A stretch of DNA of 64,000 nt, taken from NCBI RefSeq assembly GCF_050320075.1, contig NZ_CP190018.1, one strand, 5' to 3'. Origin of the DNA: Escherichia coli. GTDB taxonomy: Bacteria > Pseudomonadota > Gammaproteobacteria > Enterobacterales > Enterobacteriaceae. Positions 1-47,935 of this stretch are shown here, one piece after another (position 1 is the first letter of the stretch; the number at the start of each line of letters is the position of its first letter). The notes under the pieces were generated by a model, which was not told where the DNA came from, ran no database searches, and saw nothing but the letters and a program-made list of their open reading frames with translations. The position numbers and the translations under genes are program-made.

Positions 1-445
1 GCATCTTCTTTCAGAGTGTAACCCTGTTTTGTCAGTTGCTCTGCTTCTTGCTCGGTAAAGAACGAACCGATCGGCTTGGTCGGGTTGAGGAATGCCGGAT
101 CGTTAGCGTCGACTTCGACCTGGGTAACCAGCGTTGCTACAGGTTTATTAATGCCACGAGAAAGCAGTTCTTCTCTTAAGGCATTTTGTAGATCGTAACC
201 AATATAACCCTGGCTTAAGGCAACACAGACAGACATCGGCAGCATTGGCGAGTGCGCTTCAGTTTTTGCGGCAGCTTCAAAGGCCTGGTTAATCATGCCC
301 ACCTGCGGCCCGTTACCATGAGTGACGATGACCTCATGTCCCTGGGCAATTAAATCAACAATTGCCTGAGAAGTAATTTTTACCGCTTTCATTTGTCCGG
401 CCAGGTCATCGCCCAGCGCATTCCCGCCCAGGGCGAGAACAATTT
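1..445 (-). CDS. yqeA: carbamate kinase-like protein, partial (N-terminal part; gene continues beyond window start)
   Basis: Reverse-strand translation from ATG at 445 begins MSKKIVLALGGNALG..., a carbamate kinase (amino-acid kinase family) N-terminus; position downstream of hyuA matches the K-12 gene order as I recall it. Confidence 0.8.
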
Positions 446-502
446 TCTTACTCATTTTTCCTCACTCATCATTCTTGATTGTGTATAGATCCCTGGCAGT
501 GG

Positions 503-1888
503 TTAGAGCACGGGAGGGACAAACGGTTTGCGTCGCAGGAATCGACCTCGCCCGGCTTTGCCTGTAAAGGTGCCGTCACAGAAAATCGTTTCACCACGGG
601 ATAAGGTTCTGACAATCGCGCCCTGACAGGTAAAACCCTCCCATGGCGAGTAGTCGGCGTTGTCGTGGAGATGGCGATGCTGAATTTGTTGGCTCTGACG
701 TGGGTCGATAATCACCACGTCGCCATCGGAACCGGGCGCTAATAATCCTTTTTGCGGCCACAGGCCAAACAGCCTGGCGGGCATTGCGCTGGTTAATTCA
801 ACAAAGCGTTCCGGTGTTATACGTCCCGTCATCACGCCACTGGAAAACAGTAACTGCATGCGGTTTTCCACACCGGGTAAGCCATTTGGGCAGCGACTGA
901 AATCGCCTTTAGAAATTTGCAGGCGTTGAGCCATCGAGAAGGTGCAGTGATCGGTTGCCACCACGTCAATCGCACCATCGCTGATGCCACACCACAGTTT
1001 GTCCTGCTCGCGTATGTTACGCAGCGGTGGGCTAAGAATGAACTTCATGCCATCTTCTGTATCGTAACTGCGTTCGTCCAACAGGAGATATTGTGGGCAG
1101 GTTTCAACCCAGACTGGCTGGTGATTCGCACGGGCAAGACGCAGATAATCCAGACCTAAGCCGTTAGACAGGTGGACGATATAGAGCGGGGCGTTACCGG
1201 CAATTTGTGCCAGATTAATCATGCGGGCGATGGCTTCCGCTTCGCATTCCAGAGGGCGACTCAAGGCGTGATAGCGCGGCGCGGTTAACCCTGCGGCGAT
1301 AAATTCCGCCCGCTTGCTGGCGATAGCCGCATCATTTTCCGGGTGCACGGTGGTCAGCGCGCCGGACTCATGCAAGCGGCGTAACGCCTGCAAAACCTCG
1401 TCATCGTTGAGTTTGTATTGATAGGTTAAATAGAGTTTAAAACTGCTCAGTCCTTCTTCGACCATCATCGGAATTTCGTCGAGGATGGCGTGATTAATGT
1501 GCTGGATCACACCGTGAAAGCTGTAGTCGATGACCGCCTTATGGGCGGCATAGCCACGATAAACTTCCAGTTGATGGCGTAATCGGCAGCCATTCGGGCC
1601 AAATCCCATATGGTCAATAATGGTTGTTGTACCGCCACACGCAGCTGCGCGGGTACCGGTAAAAAAATCATCACAACTGCGCGCGATGCCGACATCAATA
1701 TTGAAATGCGTATGGACATCCACGCCGCCAGGGAAAACGTAACAGCCAGTGGCATCAATTTCTTCATACGGGAGCTGCGGCGAAATATTGCTGCCCAATT
1801 GGCGAACAATCCCGCTCTCAATCAGCAAATCTTGTTTGGCTTGTCCATCTGCGTTAACGACAGTGCCGTTTTTGATCAATACGCGCAT
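503..1888 (-). CDS. hyuA: D-phenylhydantoinase / dihydropyrimidinase-family amidohydrolase
   Basis: ORF 503..1900; metal-binding HxH near N-terminus (GGVDVHTHF), cyclic amidohydrolase-like; start trimmed to MRVLIKNGTVV. Confidence 0.85.
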   Translation of the reverse strand: MRVLIKNGTVVNADGQAKQDLLIESGIVRQLGSNISPQLPYEEIDATGCYVFPGGVDVHTHFNIDVGIARSCDDFFTGTRAAACGGTTTIIDHMGFGPNGCRLRHQLEVYRGYAAHKAVIDYSFHGVIQHINHAILDEIPMMVEEGLSSFKLYLTYQYKLNDDEVLQALRRLHESGALTTVHPENDAAIASKRAEFIAAGLTAPRYHALSRPLECEAEAIARMINLAQIAGNAPLYIVHLSNGLGLDYLRLARANHQPVWVETCPQYLLLDERSYDTEDGMKFILSPPLRNIREQDKLWCGISDGAIDVVATDHCTFSMAQRLQISKGDFSRCPNGLPGVENRMQLLFSSGVMTGRITPERFVELTSAMPARLFGLWPQKGLLAPGSDGDVVIIDPRQSQQIQHRHLHDNADYSPWEGFTCQGAIVRTLSRGETIFCDGTFTGKAGRGRFLRRKPFVPPVL

Positions 1889-1892
1889 AGCA

Positions 1893-1923
1893 AACTCCAA
1901 AAACCCTCCGGCGAACCGGAGGG
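1893..1923 (-). terminator. putative intrinsic terminator or attenuator between ygeY and hyuA
   Basis: Hairpin CCCTCCGG-cgaa-CCGGAGGG followed on the minus strand by TTTTTGGAGTTTG. Confidence 0.45.
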
Positions 1924-1940: not shown

Positions 1941-3152
1941 TTATTCGGTTGCCAGCCAGCTTAACGGGATTGCAGCGTACATCGCGGCACAGGTCACCAG
2001 GTGAGATTTCCAGGTTTTTTCGTTAGGTGCATGCGCTTCAGGTTCTTTACCCGGGCCAAAGCCGATCACCGGAATGCCGTGACGGCCCATGATAGATACG
2101 CCGTTAGTTGAGAAGGTCCACTTATCAACAACCGGCGCTTTGCCAAACAGACCTTCGTAGGCATTCACCAGTGCTTTGACAGTGAAGTGGTCTTCTTCCA
2201 CTTTCCAGGTCGGGAAGTAGCATTCGGTTGGGTAAACCAGGCCAGTCCAGGACGGACGGTCGTAGTTGTACATAGAAACAACCGCGTTAGCTTTCTGTAC
2301 CGCAGGCAGGGCGCGGATTTCGTCCAGCGCGCCTTCCCAGGTTTCGCCCCAGGTCAGACGACGGTCGATTGAAACTGCGCAGCTATCTGCTACAGCGCAA
2401 CGGCTTGGGGATGTGAAGAAGATTTCAGAAACGGTGAGGGTGCCTTTGCCGAGGAATTCATCATAGCCCAGGCGCTGGGAGAGTTCTTGTAATTCGCCAA
2501 GAATCGGACCCATTTTGAAAATGGCGTTGTCACCGCGTTCTGGTGCAGAACCGTGGCAGCTAACACCTTGAACATCAATGCGAATTTCCATACGACCGCG
2601 TTGACCACGGTATACCTGGCAATCAGTCGGTTCAGTACTGACCACAAATTCCGGGCGAATGCCGGATTGTTCAATAATGTACTGCCAGCACAGACCGTCG
2701 CAGTCTTCTTCCTGCACAGTACCGGTAACCAGCAGGGTATATTCATCTTCCAGACCGAGGTCTTTAATGATTTTACCGGCATAAACCATAGATGCCATGC
2801 CGCCTTCCTGGTCGGAAGTACCGCGACCACCGATCAGCTCATCAGTTTCCATGCCTTCGTACGGATCGAAGTCCCAGTTTTTGATGTTGCCAATGCCGAC
2901 GGTATCGATATGAGCGTCCATTGCCACCAGACGCGGGCCGTGGCCGATATAACCGAGAACGTTGCCCATCGGGTCGATTTCAACTTTATCGAAGCCGACT
3001 TTTTCCATCTCTTCTTTAATACGATGTACTACGCGTTTTTCGTCGCAGCTTTCACTGGGAATAGCAACCATGTCGCGCAGGAAGCGAGTCATGTCCGCCT
3101 GGTAATCTTTTGCTTTTTCAAGAATCAGTTTGAATGGAATATTCTTAGCCAT
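1941..3152 (-). CDS. ygeY: M20-family peptidase / deacylase-like protein
   Basis: 403-aa ORF; ArgE/DapE/M20-like metal-binding motifs ([16 protein letters not shown]). Confidence 0.85.
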
Positions 3153-3209: not shown

Positions 3210-4406
3210 TTAAGGTGCTACAGCGTGTTTGCCTTCCCAGACAACTTCGCGGTAGTGCTTCACGTCTGTGTCGCCTTCAGTGCTGATAACCAGCACTACG
3301 GCATCTTTGTTCAGCGCCAGTTTTTCCATCAGGCTTTGACGTTGCGGGTGATAATGAACCGCTGCGAGAACGCCCAAACCGACAGCGCCGGATTCACCGG
3401 AGATGATGCGTGGGTCATTGCCGTACGGGTTACCCAGCACACGCATACCTAATGCGGCAACGCTGTCCTGGCAGGAGATGAATTGGGTGGCGCAGTTACG
3501 TAGGATTTCCCAGCCCAGCGGGTTAGGTTCGCCGCAGGCCAGGCCCGCCATGATGGTGGCCATATCACCGCCAACGTTGACGATGTCGCCTTTGACGCCG
3601 GAGCGATAAATACAGTCAGCTTTGTCAGGTTCAACAATAATGCTGTGCAGATTTTGCGGGCTGTAGACGTCGACCAGATAACCCAGCACACCACCGGCCA
3701 TTGCACCGACACCGGCTTGCAGCAGAACGTGCGTCGGGGTTACGCCCATTTCACGCATTTGCTCGACGGCTTCATCTGCCAGTGTTGCGTAGCCTTGCAT
3801 GATCCAGGTTGGGATTTTGGTGTAACCTTCCCAGGCGGTATCTTGCACCACTTCCCAGCCGTGCTGCTGCGCGTGTTGCATGGTCAGGCGAACGGTATCG
3901 TCATAGTTCATATCCGTGACGATGCACTCGGCACCGAGGTTCAGAATGGCGTCAACGCGTTCCTGAGCAGAACCTTTCGGCATGTAAATCACCGCATTCT
4001 GTCCGAGTTGCTGTGCTGCCCACGCCACACCGCGCCCGTGGTTGCCGTCGGTGGTGGTCGCGAAAGTCATTTTTTCGCCGATGGCATTTTTCAGGTGCTC
4101 AAATGACAGCGTTTCGATATCAAGATGATATTTTTCGCACAATAATTGAGCGATGGCGTATGCACCGCCGAGCATTTTGAAGGCGTTCAGACCGAATCGT
4201 TTTGATTCGTCTTTGACGAGAATTTTCTTCACACCAAAAAGGTTTGCGAGATCGTTCAGCGCACAAAGCGGTGTTGGGCGATAACCAGCAATTTTCTGGT
4301 GGAACTGGCGCGCCAGTTTGGCCTGGCTTTGCGAAAAGAGCGGTGATGTTTCGCCGTTGAAAAATTTGTTATCGGCGATATCAATCTTCAATGAGAAAAC
4401 GGACAT
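3210..4406 (-). CDS. ygeX: diaminopropionate ammonia-lyase (PLP-dependent)
   Basis: 398-aa ORF; PLP beta-family fold signatures (lysine-containing motif, glycine-rich loops); size and position match K-12 ygeX/dpaL as recalled. Confidence 0.85.
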   Translation of the reverse strand: MSVFSLKIDIADNKFFNGETSPLFSQSQAKLARQFHQKIAGYRPTPLCALNDLANLFGVKKILVKDESKRFGLNAFKMLGGAYAIAQLLCEKYHLDIETLSFEHLKNAIGEKMTFATTTDGNHGRGVAWAAQQLGQNAVIYMPKGSAQERVDAILNLGAECIVTDMNYDDTVRLTMQHAQQHGWEVVQDTAWEGYTKIPTWIMQGYATLADEAVEQMREMGVTPTHVLLQAGVGAMAGGVLGYLVDVYSPQNLHSIIVEPDKADCIYRSGVKGDIVNVGGDMATIMAGLACGEPNPLGWEILRNCATQFISCQDSVAALGMRVLGNPYGNDPRIISGESGAVGLGVLAAVHYHPQRQSLMEKLALNKDAVVLVISTEGDTDVKHYREVVWEGKHAVAP

Positions 4407-4463
4407 ATCCTATCCTTTTGGCCTCTGGAAATAGAGGGCCGACCAGCTGATCGGCCCGAGGGG

Positions 4464-5654
4464 TTATTTCACGCGTTCTTGCGCTTCTTTCAGCAGTTGC
4501 TCGAGCAGTGCACCTGGTTTGGCGTATTTACGGGACAGGATCATCGCGGCGATGATATAAGGCTTCCAGCTGGCTTCTTTGTAGGTCGCGATACGGTATT
4601 TTTCGAATACGCCTTCAGTCACTTCACCTTCTTTGCAGGATACGCCGCTGATATCAGCTGGCAGGCAGTGCATGTACAGGGCTTCGCCATCACGGGTCAG
4701 TTCCATCATCTCTTCAGTACAATGCCAGTCTTTGTGTTGCGCGTTCTGTGCCAGACACTGTTTTTCCAGTGCTTTTAAGCCTTCGTGATCGTTCGCACGC
4801 AGCAATTCAGTACGCTCTTCCATCACTTTGTAAGGTGCCCATGACTTCGGATAAACGATGTCTGCGTCTTTGAAGGCTTCTTCCATGCTGGTGACCTGAC
4901 GGAAGCTACCGCCGGAGGCTTTAGCATTGTTTTTCGCCACTTCAACGACATCCGGGATCAGGTCGTAGCCTTCCGGATGGGCCAGGGTGACATCCATACC
5001 GAAGCGAGTCATCAGACCGATGATGCCTTGTGGTACAGAGAGCGGTTTGCCATAGCTTGGGGAGTAGGCCCAGGTCATGGCGATTTTTTTACCTTTCAGG
5101 TTTTCCAGTGAACCAAAGTGTTCACGTAACCATGCCAGGTCAGCCATTGACTGAGTCGGGTGGTCAATATCGCATTGCAGGTTCACTAAAGCCGGACGCT
5201 GCGGCAGTACGCCCTGCTTGTAGCCGTCATCAAGTGCAGCGCCAACTTCACGCATATAAGCGTTGCCTGCGCCCAGATACATATCGTCGCGAATACCAAT
5301 AGCGTCGGCGCAGAAGGAGATCATATTGGCGGTTTCACGCACGGTTTCGCCGTGAGCGATTTGTGATTTGCCTTCATCGAGATCTTGCTGTGCAAGGCCG
5401 AGCAGGTTAAGCGCGGAAGCATAAGAGAAGCGGGTACGAGTGGAGTTGTCGCGGAATACGGAAATACCTAATCCACTATTAAAGACTTTGGTTGAGATGT
5501 TTTCAGCACGCAGTGCTTTTAATGCTGCGGCAACGTCCAGTACTTGTTTCAGTTCATCTGGCGTCTGTTCCCACGTTAACAAAAAATCTTTCTCGTGAAG
5601 GTGAGAGGTCAGCGAATTGATATCCTTAATCAGCTCATTAACAGTTTTCATCAT
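4464..5654 (-). CDS. ygeW: transcarbamylase-like protein (aspartate/ornithine carbamoyltransferase superfamily)
   Basis: 396-aa ORF with STRTR carbamoyl-phosphate-binding motif and HCLP motif. Confidence 0.85.
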   Translation of the reverse strand: MMKTVNELIKDINSLTSHLHEKDFLLTWEQTPDELKQVLDVAAALKALRAENISTKVFNSGLGISVFRDNSTRTRFSYASALNLLGLAQQDLDEGKSQIAHGETVRETANMISFCADAIGIRDDMYLGAGNAYMREVGAALDDGYKQGVLPQRPALVNLQCDIDHPTQSMADLAWLREHFGSLENLKGKKIAMTWAYSPSYGKPLSVPQGIIGLMTRFGMDVTLAHPEGYDLIPDVVEVAKNNAKASGGSFRQVTSMEEAFKDADIVYPKSWAPYKVMEERTELLRANDHEGLKALEKQCLAQNAQHKDWHCTEEMMELTRDGEALYMHCLPADISGVSCKEGEVTEGVFEKYRIATYKEASWKPYIIAAMILSRKYAKPGALLEQLLKEAQERVK

Positions 5655-5742
5655 AAAGTCCCGGTAGTGGAATGACAGGCAAAGTGGTTTATTTCACTGT
5701 GACTTGCCAAAGTGATTGGTGTTTTCACAGCTATACCTGGGA

Positions 5743-5760
5743 CTAACAATAAGTGTGCCA
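5743..5760 (-). promoter_or_regulatory. candidate sigma54 (-24/-12) promoter for the ygeW operon
   Basis: Minus-strand reading TGGCAC-ACTTA-TTGTT about 90 bp upstream of the ygeW start; GG/-24 good, -12 element imperfect (GT not GC); adjacent divergent ygeV encodes a sigma54-type activator. Confidence 0.3.
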
Positions 5761-6129
5761 GAATTATCCACGGGGCTGCAAAAGACTAATTTGACGGATA
5801 ATGTGTGGGGTTGATCACAAATTGATACCAGCTTCTGGTTGTTTGTAAAATACGAAAACGTTTGGCTTTTTTTATCGCGTTATTTATTTGCTGCTAAGTA
5901 TCAGAAATAAGATAAAGGGGCAGGTTATCCCTCGTCAGTTTGATAAACTCACCGCCGTAATTCTCATATTGATATAGAAATGTGATATCTCTTCCATAAT
6001 TTCATTAGAAAGTGATAAAAATCTTATGTTTTTATCAAAGCCAATTTCGTCTGAGTTAATATCATCATGATCTGTGAACCATCAACGTCTTCAATGATCG
6101 ACTTTTAAGTAAGTCTGGAAGGTAAAGCT

Positions 6130-7908
6130 ATGGAGCTTGCTACTACGCAGTCAGTACTGATGCAAATTCAACCGACAATTCAGCGTTTTGCCAGAATGCT
6201 TGCCAGCGTTTTGCAGCTTGAGGTTGAGATCGTTGATGAAAACTTGTGTCGCGTCGCCGGAACGGGCGCGTATGGGAAGTTTCTTGGCCGCCAGTTGAGC
6301 GGCAACTCACGCCTGCTCCGCCACGTCCTGGAAACGAAAACTGAAAAAGTTGTGACACAATCTCGCTTCGATCCCCTTTGCGAAGGTTGCGATAGTAAAG
6401 AAAATTGCCGTGAAAAAGCATTTCTGGGTACGCCTGTCATTTTACAGGATCGTTGTGTTGGGGTGATAAGTTTGATTGCCGTTACCCACGAGCAACAAGA
6501 ACATATCAGTGATAATTTACGCGAATTTTCTGATTACGTTCGCCATATATCCACCATTTTTGTTTCGAAACTTCTGGAGGATCAGGGGCCAGGAGATAAC
6601 ATCAGTAAAATATTCGCGACCATGATCGATAATATGGATCAGGGCGTATTAGTTGTTGATGATGAAAGTCGGGTTCAGTTTGTTAATCAGACTGCCTTAA
6701 AAACACTTGGTGTTGTACAAAATAATATTATTGGGAAACCTATCCGTTTCAGACCATTAACATTTGAGAGTAATTTTACCCATGGACATATGCAGCATAT
6801 TGTTTCGTGGGACGATAAAAGTGAATTAATCATTGGTCAATTGCATAACATTCAGGGCCGACAATTATTTTTAATGGCGTTTCACCAATCGCATACCAGT
6901 TTTTCTGTAGCAAATGCACCTGATGAACCACATATTGAACAATTGGTTGGCGAGTGCCGTGTTATGCGGCAATTAAAACGACTCATTAGCCGTATTGCAC
7001 CCAGCCCATCCAGCGTTATGGTGGTTGGTGAAAGCGGCACGGGTAAAGAAGTTGTCGCCCGTGCAATCCATAAGTTGAGCGGAAGACGGAATAAACCCTT
7101 TATTGCTATCAACTGTGCCGCGATTCCGGAGCAGCTTCTGGAGAGCGAACTGTTCGGTTATGTTAAAGGCGCATTTACTGGCGCTTCTGCCAACGGTAAA
7201 ACAGGGTTGATTCAGGCGGCGAATACGGGCACGCTGTTTCTCGATGAAATAGGTGATATGCCATTAATGTTGCAGGCTAAATTACTGCGCGCTATTGAGG
7301 CGCGTGAAATTCTGCCGATTGGTGCCAGTAGCCCAATACAAGTCGACATCCGCATCATTTCTGCAACTAATCAGAATTTGGCCCAGTTCATTGCCGAAGG
7401 TAAATTCCGCGAAGATCTCTTCTACCGACTTAATGTTATCCCGATAACTCTTCCACCGCTGCGTGAACGCCAGGAAGATATTGAACTACTGGTGCATTAC
7501 TTTTTACATCTGCATACCCGTCGTCTGGGATCGGTTTATCCTGGCATTGCTCCTGATGTCGTCGAAATATTGCGTAAGCATCGTTGGCCCGGAAACCTGC
7601 GCGAGTTAAGCAATTTGATGGAATATCTGGTTAACGTTGTTCCTTCAGGTGAAGTTATCGATAGCACGCTATTGCCGCCAAATCTGCTGAATAATGGCAC
7701 AACGGAACAAAGTGATGTAACAGAGGTCAGCGAGGCGCACCTGGCACTCGATGATGCGGGCGGCACGGCGCTGGAGGAGATGGAAAAGCAAATGATCCGC
7801 GAGGCGCTTTCACGCCATAACAGCAAGAAGCAAGTTGCTGATGAACTGGGCATCGGTATTGCTACGCTCTATCGCAAGATTAAGAAATATGAGTTGTTAA
7901 ACACATAA
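6130..7908 (+). CDS. ygeV: sigma54-dependent transcriptional activator (AAA+ enhancer-binding protein)
   Basis: 592-aa ORF; Walker A GESGTGKE, GAFTGA sigma54-interaction motif, C-terminal HTH. Confidence 0.9.
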   Translation: MELATTQSVLMQIQPTIQRFARMLASVLQLEVEIVDENLCRVAGTGAYGKFLGRQLSGNSRLLRHVLETKTEKVVTQSRFDPLCEGCDSKENCREKAFLGTPVILQDRCVGVISLIAVTHEQQEHISDNLREFSDYVRHISTIFVSKLLEDQGPGDNISKIFATMIDNMDQGVLVVDDESRVQFVNQTALKTLGVVQNNIIGKPIRFRPLTFESNFTHGHMQHIVSWDDKSELIIGQLHNIQGRQLFLMAFHQSHTSFSVANAPDEPHIEQLVGECRVMRQLKRLISRIAPSPSSVMVVGESGTGKEVVARAIHKLSGRRNKPFIAINCAAIPEQLLESELFGYVKGAFTGASANGKTGLIQAANTGTLFLDEIGDMPLMLQAKLLRAIEAREILPIGASSPIQVDIRIISATNQNLAQFIAEGKFREDLFYRLNVIPITLPPLRERQEDIELLVHYFLHLHTRRLGSVYPGIAPDVVEILRKHRWPGNLRELSNLMEYLVNVVPSGEVIDSTLLPPNLLNNGTTEQSDVTEVSEAHLALDDAGGTALEEMEKQMIREALSRHNSKKQVADELGIGIATLYRKIKKYELLNT

Positions 7909-11571: not shown

Positions 11572-12025
11572 GCATGATTCACCTGTAGCGGTTGCTTCCC
11601 GCGCTTCCATAGAAATCCCCTCGATTTGAACATTTGGTTCTTATGGCAAAGATTTAGTCTAAGCAGGCAAGATTTACGCCAGAAACGACGATAAGCGTTA
11701 AGGGAGGAAGGAAGTGTGATGATGTTAAAAAAACACAGATATGATACGAAACAGGACCCTGAATAGGGGCAGTGATACGTATCAATATGAGTGGCGATAA
11801 AATCAATGTGATAAATTGGGATTATTACGCATCAGGATGGGAAATAGGGTAAATGAGTCAGGAAATTAGATACATCTACAGTGAATATTTTGCTGATGAT
11901 ACTTCCCTTTGCCAAATGAAATTAACCTCTTTCTCTATTACCGCGTTTTTCCAGAAGCAAGAGATTGGGTATCAAGAGGCTGGCTGCTATGATATGGCGT
12001 CTTGTTTTTTAAGCGAGGAAAGATT

Positions 12026-12856: not shown

Positions 12857-12930
12857 GCGGGCGTAGTTCAATGGTAGAACGAGAGCTTCCCAAGCTCTAT
12901 ACGAGGGTTCGATTCCCTTCGCCCGCTCAA
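12857..12930 (+). tRNA. glyU: tRNA-Gly (anticodon CCC)
   Basis: GCGGGCGTAGTTCAATGGTAGAACGAGAGCTTCCCAAGCTCTATACGAGGGTTCGATTCCCTTCGCCCGCTC; acceptor stem pairs, anticodon loop CTTCCCAAG, T-loop GGTTCGATTCC; 3' end reads CAA rather than CCA. Confidence 0.9.
12913..12928. repeat. attL core: 16-bp direct repeat (tRNA-Gly 3' end)
   Basis: TTCCCTTCGCCCGCTC identical to 32061..32076. Confidence 0.7.
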
Positions 12931-15735: not shown

Positions 15736-16560
15736 ATGAAACTGCGAAAAACGCCCGTACAGGGGCAGGGCTTTGTTCGGCCTGAAAACCAGAATCTGCA
15801 AAATTTCGGCGAAATTATCCCGGTTATTTCCGGCGTTATTGGCGGGCGTGAAGCCGCTGTTGTTAGCGCAAAAGCGTTACACAAAGCGTTGGGCGTGGGA
15901 AAAGACTTCTCTACATGGATCACTGATCGTATCTCTGAATATGACTTCACCATTGGGTACGATTACTCAGTCCATAAAACAATTTCCCCAAATTTGGGGA
16001 AAAGCCCGAATGGCGAGGCTTACAGCAAGATTAAGCACTCTGGCAGACCCGGTAAAGACTATCTGTTAAGTGTCGGAATGGCGAAAGAACTGGCAATGAT
16101 CGAACGCACCGAACAGGGCCGCGCCGTTCGTCAGTACTTCATCAAATGCGAGGAGGAGCTACACAAAGTAGCGCCAGTGCGTTCCGCAGCGTTACGCCGT
16201 GAACTGAAAGCCCGTATCACCGTTGCCAGCTACTTTAAGCCGATGTGTGCCGCGCTGGAGGCGTACCGCGCTGAACTGGGTAAAAACACGCTCCAGCACC
16301 ACTACACCACGGAAGCCAATATGCTGGCGCGTATCGTGCTGGGTGGCATGACTGCAAAACAGTGGGCGCAGGCGAACGGCATCACAGGCGAACCACGCGA
16401 CCACATGAGCACGCTGCAGCTTGAGCACCTTTCTTACCTTGAGCAGAGCAATATCACGCTGATTGAGTTAGGCCAGGACTACCACCAGCGGAAAGCTGAA
16501 TTAATTCGTCTTTCGCAACGCTGGTTAGCCCGCCGCATGGAGGTGAGCAGCCATGCGTAA
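15736..16560 (+). CDS. phage antirepressor-like protein (KilA-C-like domain), tentative
   Basis: 274 aa; position after alpA and adjacency to a Bro-N gene; domain call is from memory of motif content only. Confidence 0.45.
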   Translation: MKLRKTPVQGQGFVRPENQNLQNFGEIIPVISGVIGGREAAVVSAKALHKALGVGKDFSTWITDRISEYDFTIGYDYSVHKTISPNLGKSPNGEAYSKIKHSGRPGKDYLLSVGMAKELAMIERTEQGRAVRQYFIKCEEELHKVAPVRSAALRRELKARITVASYFKPMCAALEAYRAELGKNTLQHHYTTEANMLARIVLGGMTAKQWAQANGITGEPRDHMSTLQLEHLSYLEQSNITLIELGQDYHQRKAELIRLSQRWLARRMEVSSHA

Positions 16561-47716: not shown

Positions 47717-47935
47717 CTACCATTCCAGTTCATAGTAAGGAGAGATAGGATTATCTTTCGAATACATATCATTTTGAAAAGATGCCATCCATGTTGAAAC
47801 TATAAATGCTTGTATTTGATCTGTATCAGTAGTACTGGTGGTGATGTGTTTATCTAATGAAACGACTTCATCACCCGTTGCGGTTGCTATATTTAAACTT
47901 TGAGAAAAATTATTCATATTGATTGGATTAGTCAT
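47717..47935 (-). CDS. ygeI: small ETT2 protein
   Basis: 72-aa product MTNPINMNNFSQ...; position matches K-12 order as recalled. Confidence 0.6.
   Translation of the reverse strand: MTNPINMNNFSQSLNIATATGDEVVSLDKHITTSTTDTDQIQAFIVSTWMASFQNDMYSKDNPISPYYELEW

Follow-up and report, generated by a model that had tools for sequence, protein, structure and literature searches.

The window, by which we mean the whole stretch of 64,000 nucleotides (64 kb) that was analysed, is part of an Escherichia coli chromosome and carries, from left to right, yqeA<hyuA<ygeY<ygeX<ygeW, ygeV>, <xdhCBA, actS/ygeR, tRNA-Gly and the ETT2 island, with gene identities taken from the RefSeq annotation of an identical strain. 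This annotation agrees with a preliminary reading made from the DNA alone (the sequence-only reading), which had placed ygeW, ygeX, ygeY, hyuA and yqeA on the minus strand and ygeV divergently on the plus strand, and the coordinates of the ygeW/ygeV spacer equal those given there exactly. The genes that flank the spacer, all from annotation, are as follows.

1-455, minus strand: yqeA/arcC, cut by the window edge
503-1888, minus strand: hyuA
1941-3152, minus strand: ygeY
3210-4406, minus strand: ygeX/dpaL
4464..5654, minus strand: ygeW, a knotted carbamoyltransferase, first gene after the promoter
5655..6129: the ygeW/ygeV spacer, 475 bp
6130..7908, plus strand: ygeV (isrR), sigma-54 enhancer-binding protein of 592 aa (also from Pfam and motifs)

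The 475-bp spacer is present in 5,180 of 5,426 complete genomes at 95-100% identity. ygeW opens with ATGATG (5651-5656), and its start is placed at 5654 by the ORF tool and at 5651 by PGAP; all 11 orthologues align to one ATG, at the second position. Elsewhere in the window, the tRNA-Gly gene (12857-12930) adjoins a long ETT2 type III secretion island (13151-37054), which has few pseudogenes and is far more complete here than in K-12, and a tnpA of the IS200/IS605 family (47263-47721) lies between araE and ygeA.

The gaps among the five genes ygeW-ygeX-ygeY-hyuA-yqeA measure 40-57 bp, and comparison between species identified conserved stem-loops in two of them. A terminator-like hairpin follows yqeA at locus L092, which also holds copies of a motif described below.

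4457..4436, minus strand: conserved GC-rich stem-loop in the ygeW-ygeX gap
1923..1904, minus strand: second conserved GC-rich stem-loop, between ygeY and hyuA, with TTTTT after it in E. coli
L092, 27705..27680: terminator-like hairpin after yqeA

Both intercistronic stem-loops were found in every one of the 11 species compared, where compensatory base changes accompany them, and most lack a U-tract. Since a U-tract follows only some of them, they may be mRNA stabilisers or attenuators inside the operon, and they look more like such elements than like full terminators. The literature names the unit variously 'ygeW' (PMC8743547) or 'ygeWXY' (PMC10602906); one five-gene transcript from ygeW to yqeA is plausible. 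In the reductive breakdown of uric acid, these genes encode the lower part of the pathway (PMC12507026).

The TGGCAC-N5-TTGT element that had been proposed upstream of ygeW on the minus strand is present within the spacer as TGGCACACTTATTGT (5760..5746), in the minus-strand context ...ATTCTGGCACACTTATTGTTAGTCC..., and forms part of a sigma-54 -24/-12 element.

5761..5745, minus strand: sigma-54 -24/-12 element, the 17-mer CTGGCACACTTATTGTT (matrix, conservation, published ChIP-seq and gSELEX)
5734, minus strand: predicted ygeW transcription start (+1), with an 80-nt leader to the ATG at 5654 (-24/-12 geometry)

The GG of the element lies at 5759/5758, the -13 G at 5747 and the -12 T at 5746. 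Its -24 half, CTGGCAC (5761..5755), is a perfect match that is invariant in 12 species, and the spacing from the GG to the -12 dinucleotide is exactly 10 bp. The T-T-G is present and the -12 C is replaced by T (TTGTT), as recognized in the sequence-only reading, which had called the -12 element imperfect (TTGT instead of TTGC); the same T is invariant in the 12 aligned species. The pattern TGGCAC-N5-TTGY has one match only in 64 kb, where 0.44 are expected. When scored with a log-odds matrix derived from 41 published intergenic sigma-54 ChIP-seq sites (Bonocora et al. Table 1, ygeW excluded), CTGGCACACTTATTGTT reaches 15.79 bits, which is the top match in 64 kb on either strand and ranks 16 of 42 among the validated sites. 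According to the exact score distribution such a score has a frequency of 2e-6 per position, corresponding to 0.0007-0.001 matches expected in the ygeW/ygeV spacer in the ygeW orientation. Matrix matches of 13.4-15.1 bits also occur within ETT2 genes, at 21402-21418 (minus strand), 21830-21846 (plus strand) and 16324-16340 (plus strand), including one antisense in sctN; intragenic sites are common in ChIP-seq data.

The ygeW sigma-54 site is already known in the literature, and the present result is a confirmation and no discovery. The exact 17-mer is listed by Bonocora et al. (2015, PLoS Genet, Table 1) as sigma-54 ChIP-seq site OS30, assigned to ygeW at a distance of 80, with a peak centre at 3,004,190 and a fold above threshold of 3, versus 11 for xdhA and 26 for ygfK (PMC4591121). 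It was counted as new in 2015 because it had no EcoCyc entry then. By the rule of those authors, transcription begins 19 bp downstream from the centre of the motif (PMC4591121), and the start at 5734 derived here from the -24/-12 geometry agrees with both this rule and their distance of 80. They also caution that sigma-54 binding is no proof of a productive promoter (PMC4591121). A peak of RpoN holoenzyme in gSELEX was subsequently reported in the ygeV/ygeW spacer at 3,004,270, with an intensity of 53-55% (Shimada et al. 2021, PMC8743547), and Lamoureux et al. (2023, PMC10602906) state that sigma-54 promoters have been identified upstream of xdhABC and ygeWXY. In the literature searched, no rpoN-, ygeV- or crp-dependence of ygeW transcription and no mapped ygeW start were reported.

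Conservation was assessed at 11 other Enterobacterales loci, from Enterobacter sp. Bisph1, Cedecea, Pluralibacter, Serratia, Kluyvera, Raoultella, Intestinirhabdus, Trabulsiella, Atlantibacter, Citrobacter amalonaticus and Pseudocitrobacter. E. coli YgeV as a protein query returned near-identical E. coli entries only, and the diverse set used here was obtained with the Bisph1 orthologue, to which the YgeV proteins of the set are 69-100% identical. Scanning the genome contigs for YgeV gave one close orthologue together with distant paralogues. The divergent ygeW/ygeV order is kept in all 11 other species, with spacers of 456-497 bp. TGGCAC-NN-TTATTGTTA, the -12 T included, is invariant in 12 of 12 species, compared with a mean column identity of 59% across the spacer alignment, and the sigma-54 element is the most conserved 17-mer of the spacer (0.951), above the region of the ribosome-binding site and start codon. 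E. coli alleles vary at many spacer positions, none of which lies within the sigma-54 element. The -12 T (TTGT) is also found in the confirmed pspA and pspG promoters and, being kept in 12 of 12 species, appears to fall within the functional range, though it is non-canonical.

A scan of the spacer gave no plausible sigma-70-like promoter facing ygeW, the sole minus-strand match (5678..5650) being one that overlaps the ygeW start codon. A cis-regulatory leader RNA (a riboswitch or similar) was considered and rejected, since the spacer and leader have no match to Rfam families at E <= 1 and the fold of the ygeW leader is insignificant (z-score -0.2).

The product of the divergent gene has the properties of a sigma-54-dependent activator, as the sequence-only reading had claimed. 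YgeV contains Sigma54_activat (PF00158, E 8e-71), AAA_lid_14 (PF25601), HTH_8 (PF02954, a Fis-type HTH) and PAS domains by Pfam, and carries the Walker A and the sigma-54-contacting GAFTGA motifs, which identifies it by sequence as a predicted enhancer-binding protein. Clostridial homologues are 35-39% identical. The YgeV iModulon comprises ygeWXY, hyuA, xdhABC, ygfK and ygfT (Lamoureux et al. 2023, PMC10602906), and an earlier study, as cited there, found ygfT expression to be lower in a ygeV mutant. ygeV has also been reported to take part in anaerobic urate consumption. In EHEC work, where it was renamed isrR, the reported connections of the gene are to indole signalling and virulence genes and not to purine genes. 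No report of YgeV-DNA binding was found in the literature searched.

Every 5-mer dyad with a gap of 0-10 (11,264 patterns) was searched for exhaustively in four spacers, those of ygeW, xdhA, ygfK and ygfT. TATCA-N3-TGATA was the only dyad among the 11,264 that is present in all four. It occurs at 5 sites in 1,646 bp of regulon spacers versus 7 in 90,543 bp of background, an enrichment of ~39-fold. The copies in the ygeW spacer, those upstream of xdhA and the further occurrences are listed below, together with the sigma-54 promoter of xdhA.

5962..5974, minus strand: candidate YgeV site 1, TATCAATATGAGA, one mismatch to the palindrome, centre -234 (conservation)
5933..5945, minus strand: candidate site 2, TATCAAACTGACG, strong left half only, centre -205 (conservation)
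5975..5987, minus strand: weak adjacent site TATCACATTTCTA, centre -247, assignment ambiguous
6060..6072, minus strand: palindrome-like site GATCATGATGATA, centre -332 from ygeW and 58-70 bp before the ygeV ATG (conservation)
11666..11682, minus strand: sister sigma-54 promoter of xdhA, CTGGCGTAAATCTTGCC, published ChIP-seq site OS29 (matrix, literature)
11801-11813 (-152) and 11780-11792 (-131): xdhA palindromes, 21 bp apart (conservation)
L092 24483-24495 and 9113-9125: further palindrome copies, of the motif common to the ygeW, xdhA, ygfK and ygfT/uacT spacers

In the ygeW spacers of the 12 species, the palindrome of site 1 is found with 0-1 mismatch at -234 to -237 in every case, a half-conserved copy lies at -205 to -208, where TTATCA-N3-TG of site 2 is invariant, and a further copy lies near -332. 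Altogether these spacers contain 34 palindrome sites (<=2 mismatches), compared with 4.6 ± 2.1 in shuffles. A 12-mer, CTCATATTGATA, is common to the ygeW spacer and the regions upstream of xdhA and ygfT, and the region upstream of ygfK has a perfect palindrome, TATCATAATGATA. The best palindromes in E. coli are positioned at -202 for ygfK, at -199 for ygfT and at -152 and -131 for xdhA, so that site 2 of ygeW (-205) matches ygfK and ygfT in position. A perfect palindrome, TATCAAGATGATA, is additionally present at 4118-4130 inside the ygeX/dpaL coding sequence and may be a chance occurrence or an internal site.

The xdhA, ygfK and ygfT promoters share with ygeW their ChIP-seq sites, their membership of the YgeV iModulon and an upstream TATCA-N3-TGATA, whereas they have the canonical GC at -12 and weaker -24 halves. 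The enhancer pair of xdhA (-152, -131) is also nearer its promoter than is the ygeW pair. The xdhA promoter and both of its palindromes are invariant in 5 species, and a conserved TTTTTAA..CATCACA block is located ~35 bp upstream of the xdhA -24 element. The repetition at xdhA, ygfK and ygfT of the same pattern of sigma-54 element, YgeV site and spacing fits a single YgeV regulon. On the basis of the fixed position in 12 species and the dyad common to four promoters, we propose, with moderate confidence, that the TATCA-N3-TGATA palindromes are candidate binding sites for YgeV.

The palindromes lie 200-330 bp from the ygeW promoter and 60-200 bp from the ygeV start, and could also autoregulate ygeV. 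The proposed enhancer is unusually far upstream of ygeW, yet only ~150 bp from the ygeV start, and could thus serve a ygeV promoter instead of, or besides, that of ygeW. A conserved -10-like TATCAT on the plus strand (6052-6068) is located 65-70 bp upstream of the ygeV ATG and lacks a good -35. The palindrome-like GATCATGATGATA overlaps this hexamer and could serve in ygeV autoregulation.

The spacer also contains two CRP-like sites.

5804..5819, minus strand: CRP-like site TGTGATCAACCCCACA, centre -77.5 (<=2 mismatches to TGTGA-N6-TCACA)
5981-5996, minus strand: second, weaker CRP-like site, conserved across species, centre -254.5

All 12 species have the promoter-proximal site at -77.5/-78.5, the Pseudocitrobacter copy matching the consensus perfectly, and the core of the site is unchanged among E. 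coli variants. A native Crp site in the ygeW/ygeV spacer and glucose repression of urate degradation have been mentioned in the literature (PMC12507026). The good half of the weaker site coincides with the invariant ATCACA of TATCACATTTCTA. This second site might act on the promoter of ygeV; the idea of a class II CRP-dependent promoter that uses it was considered and set aside, the geometry being unconvincing. Between enhancer and promoter no conserved IHF consensus was found in the 12 species, in which the IHF matches coincide with the palindromes. Hence, CRP may supply the bend. Relative to the literature searched, both the candidate YgeV palindrome and the position of the CRP-like site at -77.5 appear to be new.

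Sequence, comparative and published binding evidence thus agree with the original proposal that ygeW is served by a sigma-54 promoter and that this promoter is paired with its divergent neighbour ygeV. Overall, we consider it highly probable that the ygeW unit has a sigma-54 promoter activated by YgeV, probably through the upstream palindromes, with a CRP-like site between the two. In this model, sigma-54 RNA polymerase, whose binding is shown in the literature, occupies the -24 GG and -12 GT as a closed complex. YgeV would probably bind TATCA-N3-TGATA ~200-235 bp upstream and reach the closed complex by DNA looping, making contact via its GAFTGA loop, and its ATP hydrolysis would then open the promoter near 5734. 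The CRP-like site at -77.5, between enhancer and promoter, probably gives catabolite control, and CRP bound there may provide the bend that IHF contributes at other sigma-54 promoters. A more specific proposal, namely that the enterobacterial urate regulon has an undescribed design in which YgeV binds the 13-bp palindrome unusually far upstream (about -200 to -235), CRP at -77.5 replaces IHF as architectural co-activator and the conserved -12 T tunes the closed complex so that both inputs are required, is put forward tentatively and is in our view slightly less probable than its negation.

Two alternatives concern the promoter and its activator. The sigma-54 site might be bound but unproductive, and a CRP-dependent sigma-70 promoter within the spacer might drive ygeW instead. 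The weak ChIP signal (fold above threshold of 3), the imperfect -12 element, the conserved CRP-like sites with the reported glucose repression, and the warning of Bonocora et al. that many sites may never fire are all in keeping with this. It is nevertheless very unlikely: no sigma-70 -35/-10 pair is directed toward ygeW except the one over the start codon, and for transcription starting near 5734, a CRP site centred at -77.5 fits neither the standard class I nor the standard class II placement. In addition, the flanks of the 17-mer diverge among the 12 species whereas the element itself, -12 T included, never changes, a pattern that is hard to reconcile with an inert site; the gene for an enhancer-binding protein is always adjacent, and ygeW is co-regulated with other sigma-54 promoters. 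Even less probable is a true sigma-54 promoter that responds to another enhancer-binding protein, for example to NtrC through cross-talk, while YgeV has its role in other processes such as indole/LEE regulation. The ties of YgeV/IsrR to indole signalling and virulence genes in EHEC would suit such an arrangement, and no direct YgeV-ygeW report was found in the literature searched. Against it stand the divergent pairing kept in all 12 species, the one palindrome common to four YgeV iModulon promoters, the reported part of ygeV in anaerobic urate consumption and, as far as the earlier study is cited, the lower ygfT expression in a ygeV mutant. As for NtrC itself, a ChIP-seq study summarized by Bonocora et al. 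gave no binding upstream of hypA or zraP (PMC4591121), and no equivalent statement for ygeW was found in that paper.

The third alternative retains sigma-54 and YgeV, and attributes the palindromes to IHF or another dimeric regulator, or to operators of ygeV, with the enhancer located elsewhere. This is unlikely, yet deserves more weight than the two alternatives above. The palindromes are 200-330 bp from the ygeW promoter and only 60-200 bp from the ygeV start, the half-site TATCA is similar to WATCAA, the core of IHF sites, ygeX contains a perfect copy, and YgeV binding is absent from the literature searched. However, a motif with dyad symmetry is the kind that a dimeric HTH protein recognizes, unlike the asymmetric site of IHF, and an unbiased scan of dyads placed this motif alone at the top. 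It is furthermore present in four promoters of one iModulon, three of which carry it near -200, and xdhA, ygfK and ygfT have no divergent ygeV gene to regulate.

A sigma-54-dependent promoter, probably under the control of YgeV and CRP, would account for the silence of the pathway in standard cultures and for its repression by glucose. Work is under way to engineer the anaerobic reductive breakdown of uric acid into probiotic E. coli against hyperuricaemia (PMC12507026). Nothing new is contributed by the sigma-54 site as such; testable targets for the step by which urate or a related signal induces the regulon are offered by the predicted YgeV palindrome and the placement of the CRP-like site. 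With respect to the published site OS30 and the gSELEX peak, the 17-mer, the gene and the predicted start 80 bp before ygeW are identical; the strain analysed here is non-K-12, and its promoter sequence is unchanged.

The prp system is under catabolite control, and an IHF site has been described there. Like ygeV/ygeW, prpR/prpBCDE of E. coli and Salmonella combines a divergent activator gene with a sigma-54 promoter of a catabolic operon (prpB is site OS01), and the two are also alike in having a CRP-like site in the shared spacer. They differ in inducer and pathway, and in that the ygeW spacer lacks a conserved IHF match and has its CRP-like site between enhancer and promoter. The closest counterparts of the non-canonical -12 element are the EcoCyc-confirmed sigma-54 promoters of pspA (TTGGCACGCAAATTGTA) and pspG (TTGGCATGATTCTTGTA), which have TTGT at -12 as does ygeW, with matrix scores of 14.6 bits for pspA, 15.8 for pspG and 15.8 for ygeW. 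The psp system is unlike ygeW in its physiology and in its activator, PspF, which has no sensory domain. A parallel at the level of the regulon is provided by DioR, a sigma-54 enhancer-binding protein of Clostridiales that is predicted to control the homologous dpaL/ygeW-ygfK-ssnA-ygeY genes (Nie et al. 2019, BMC Genomics). As with YgeV, a sigma-54 regulator is thereby set over a homologous gene cluster, but DioR belongs to another phylum and presumably recognizes another enhancer motif.
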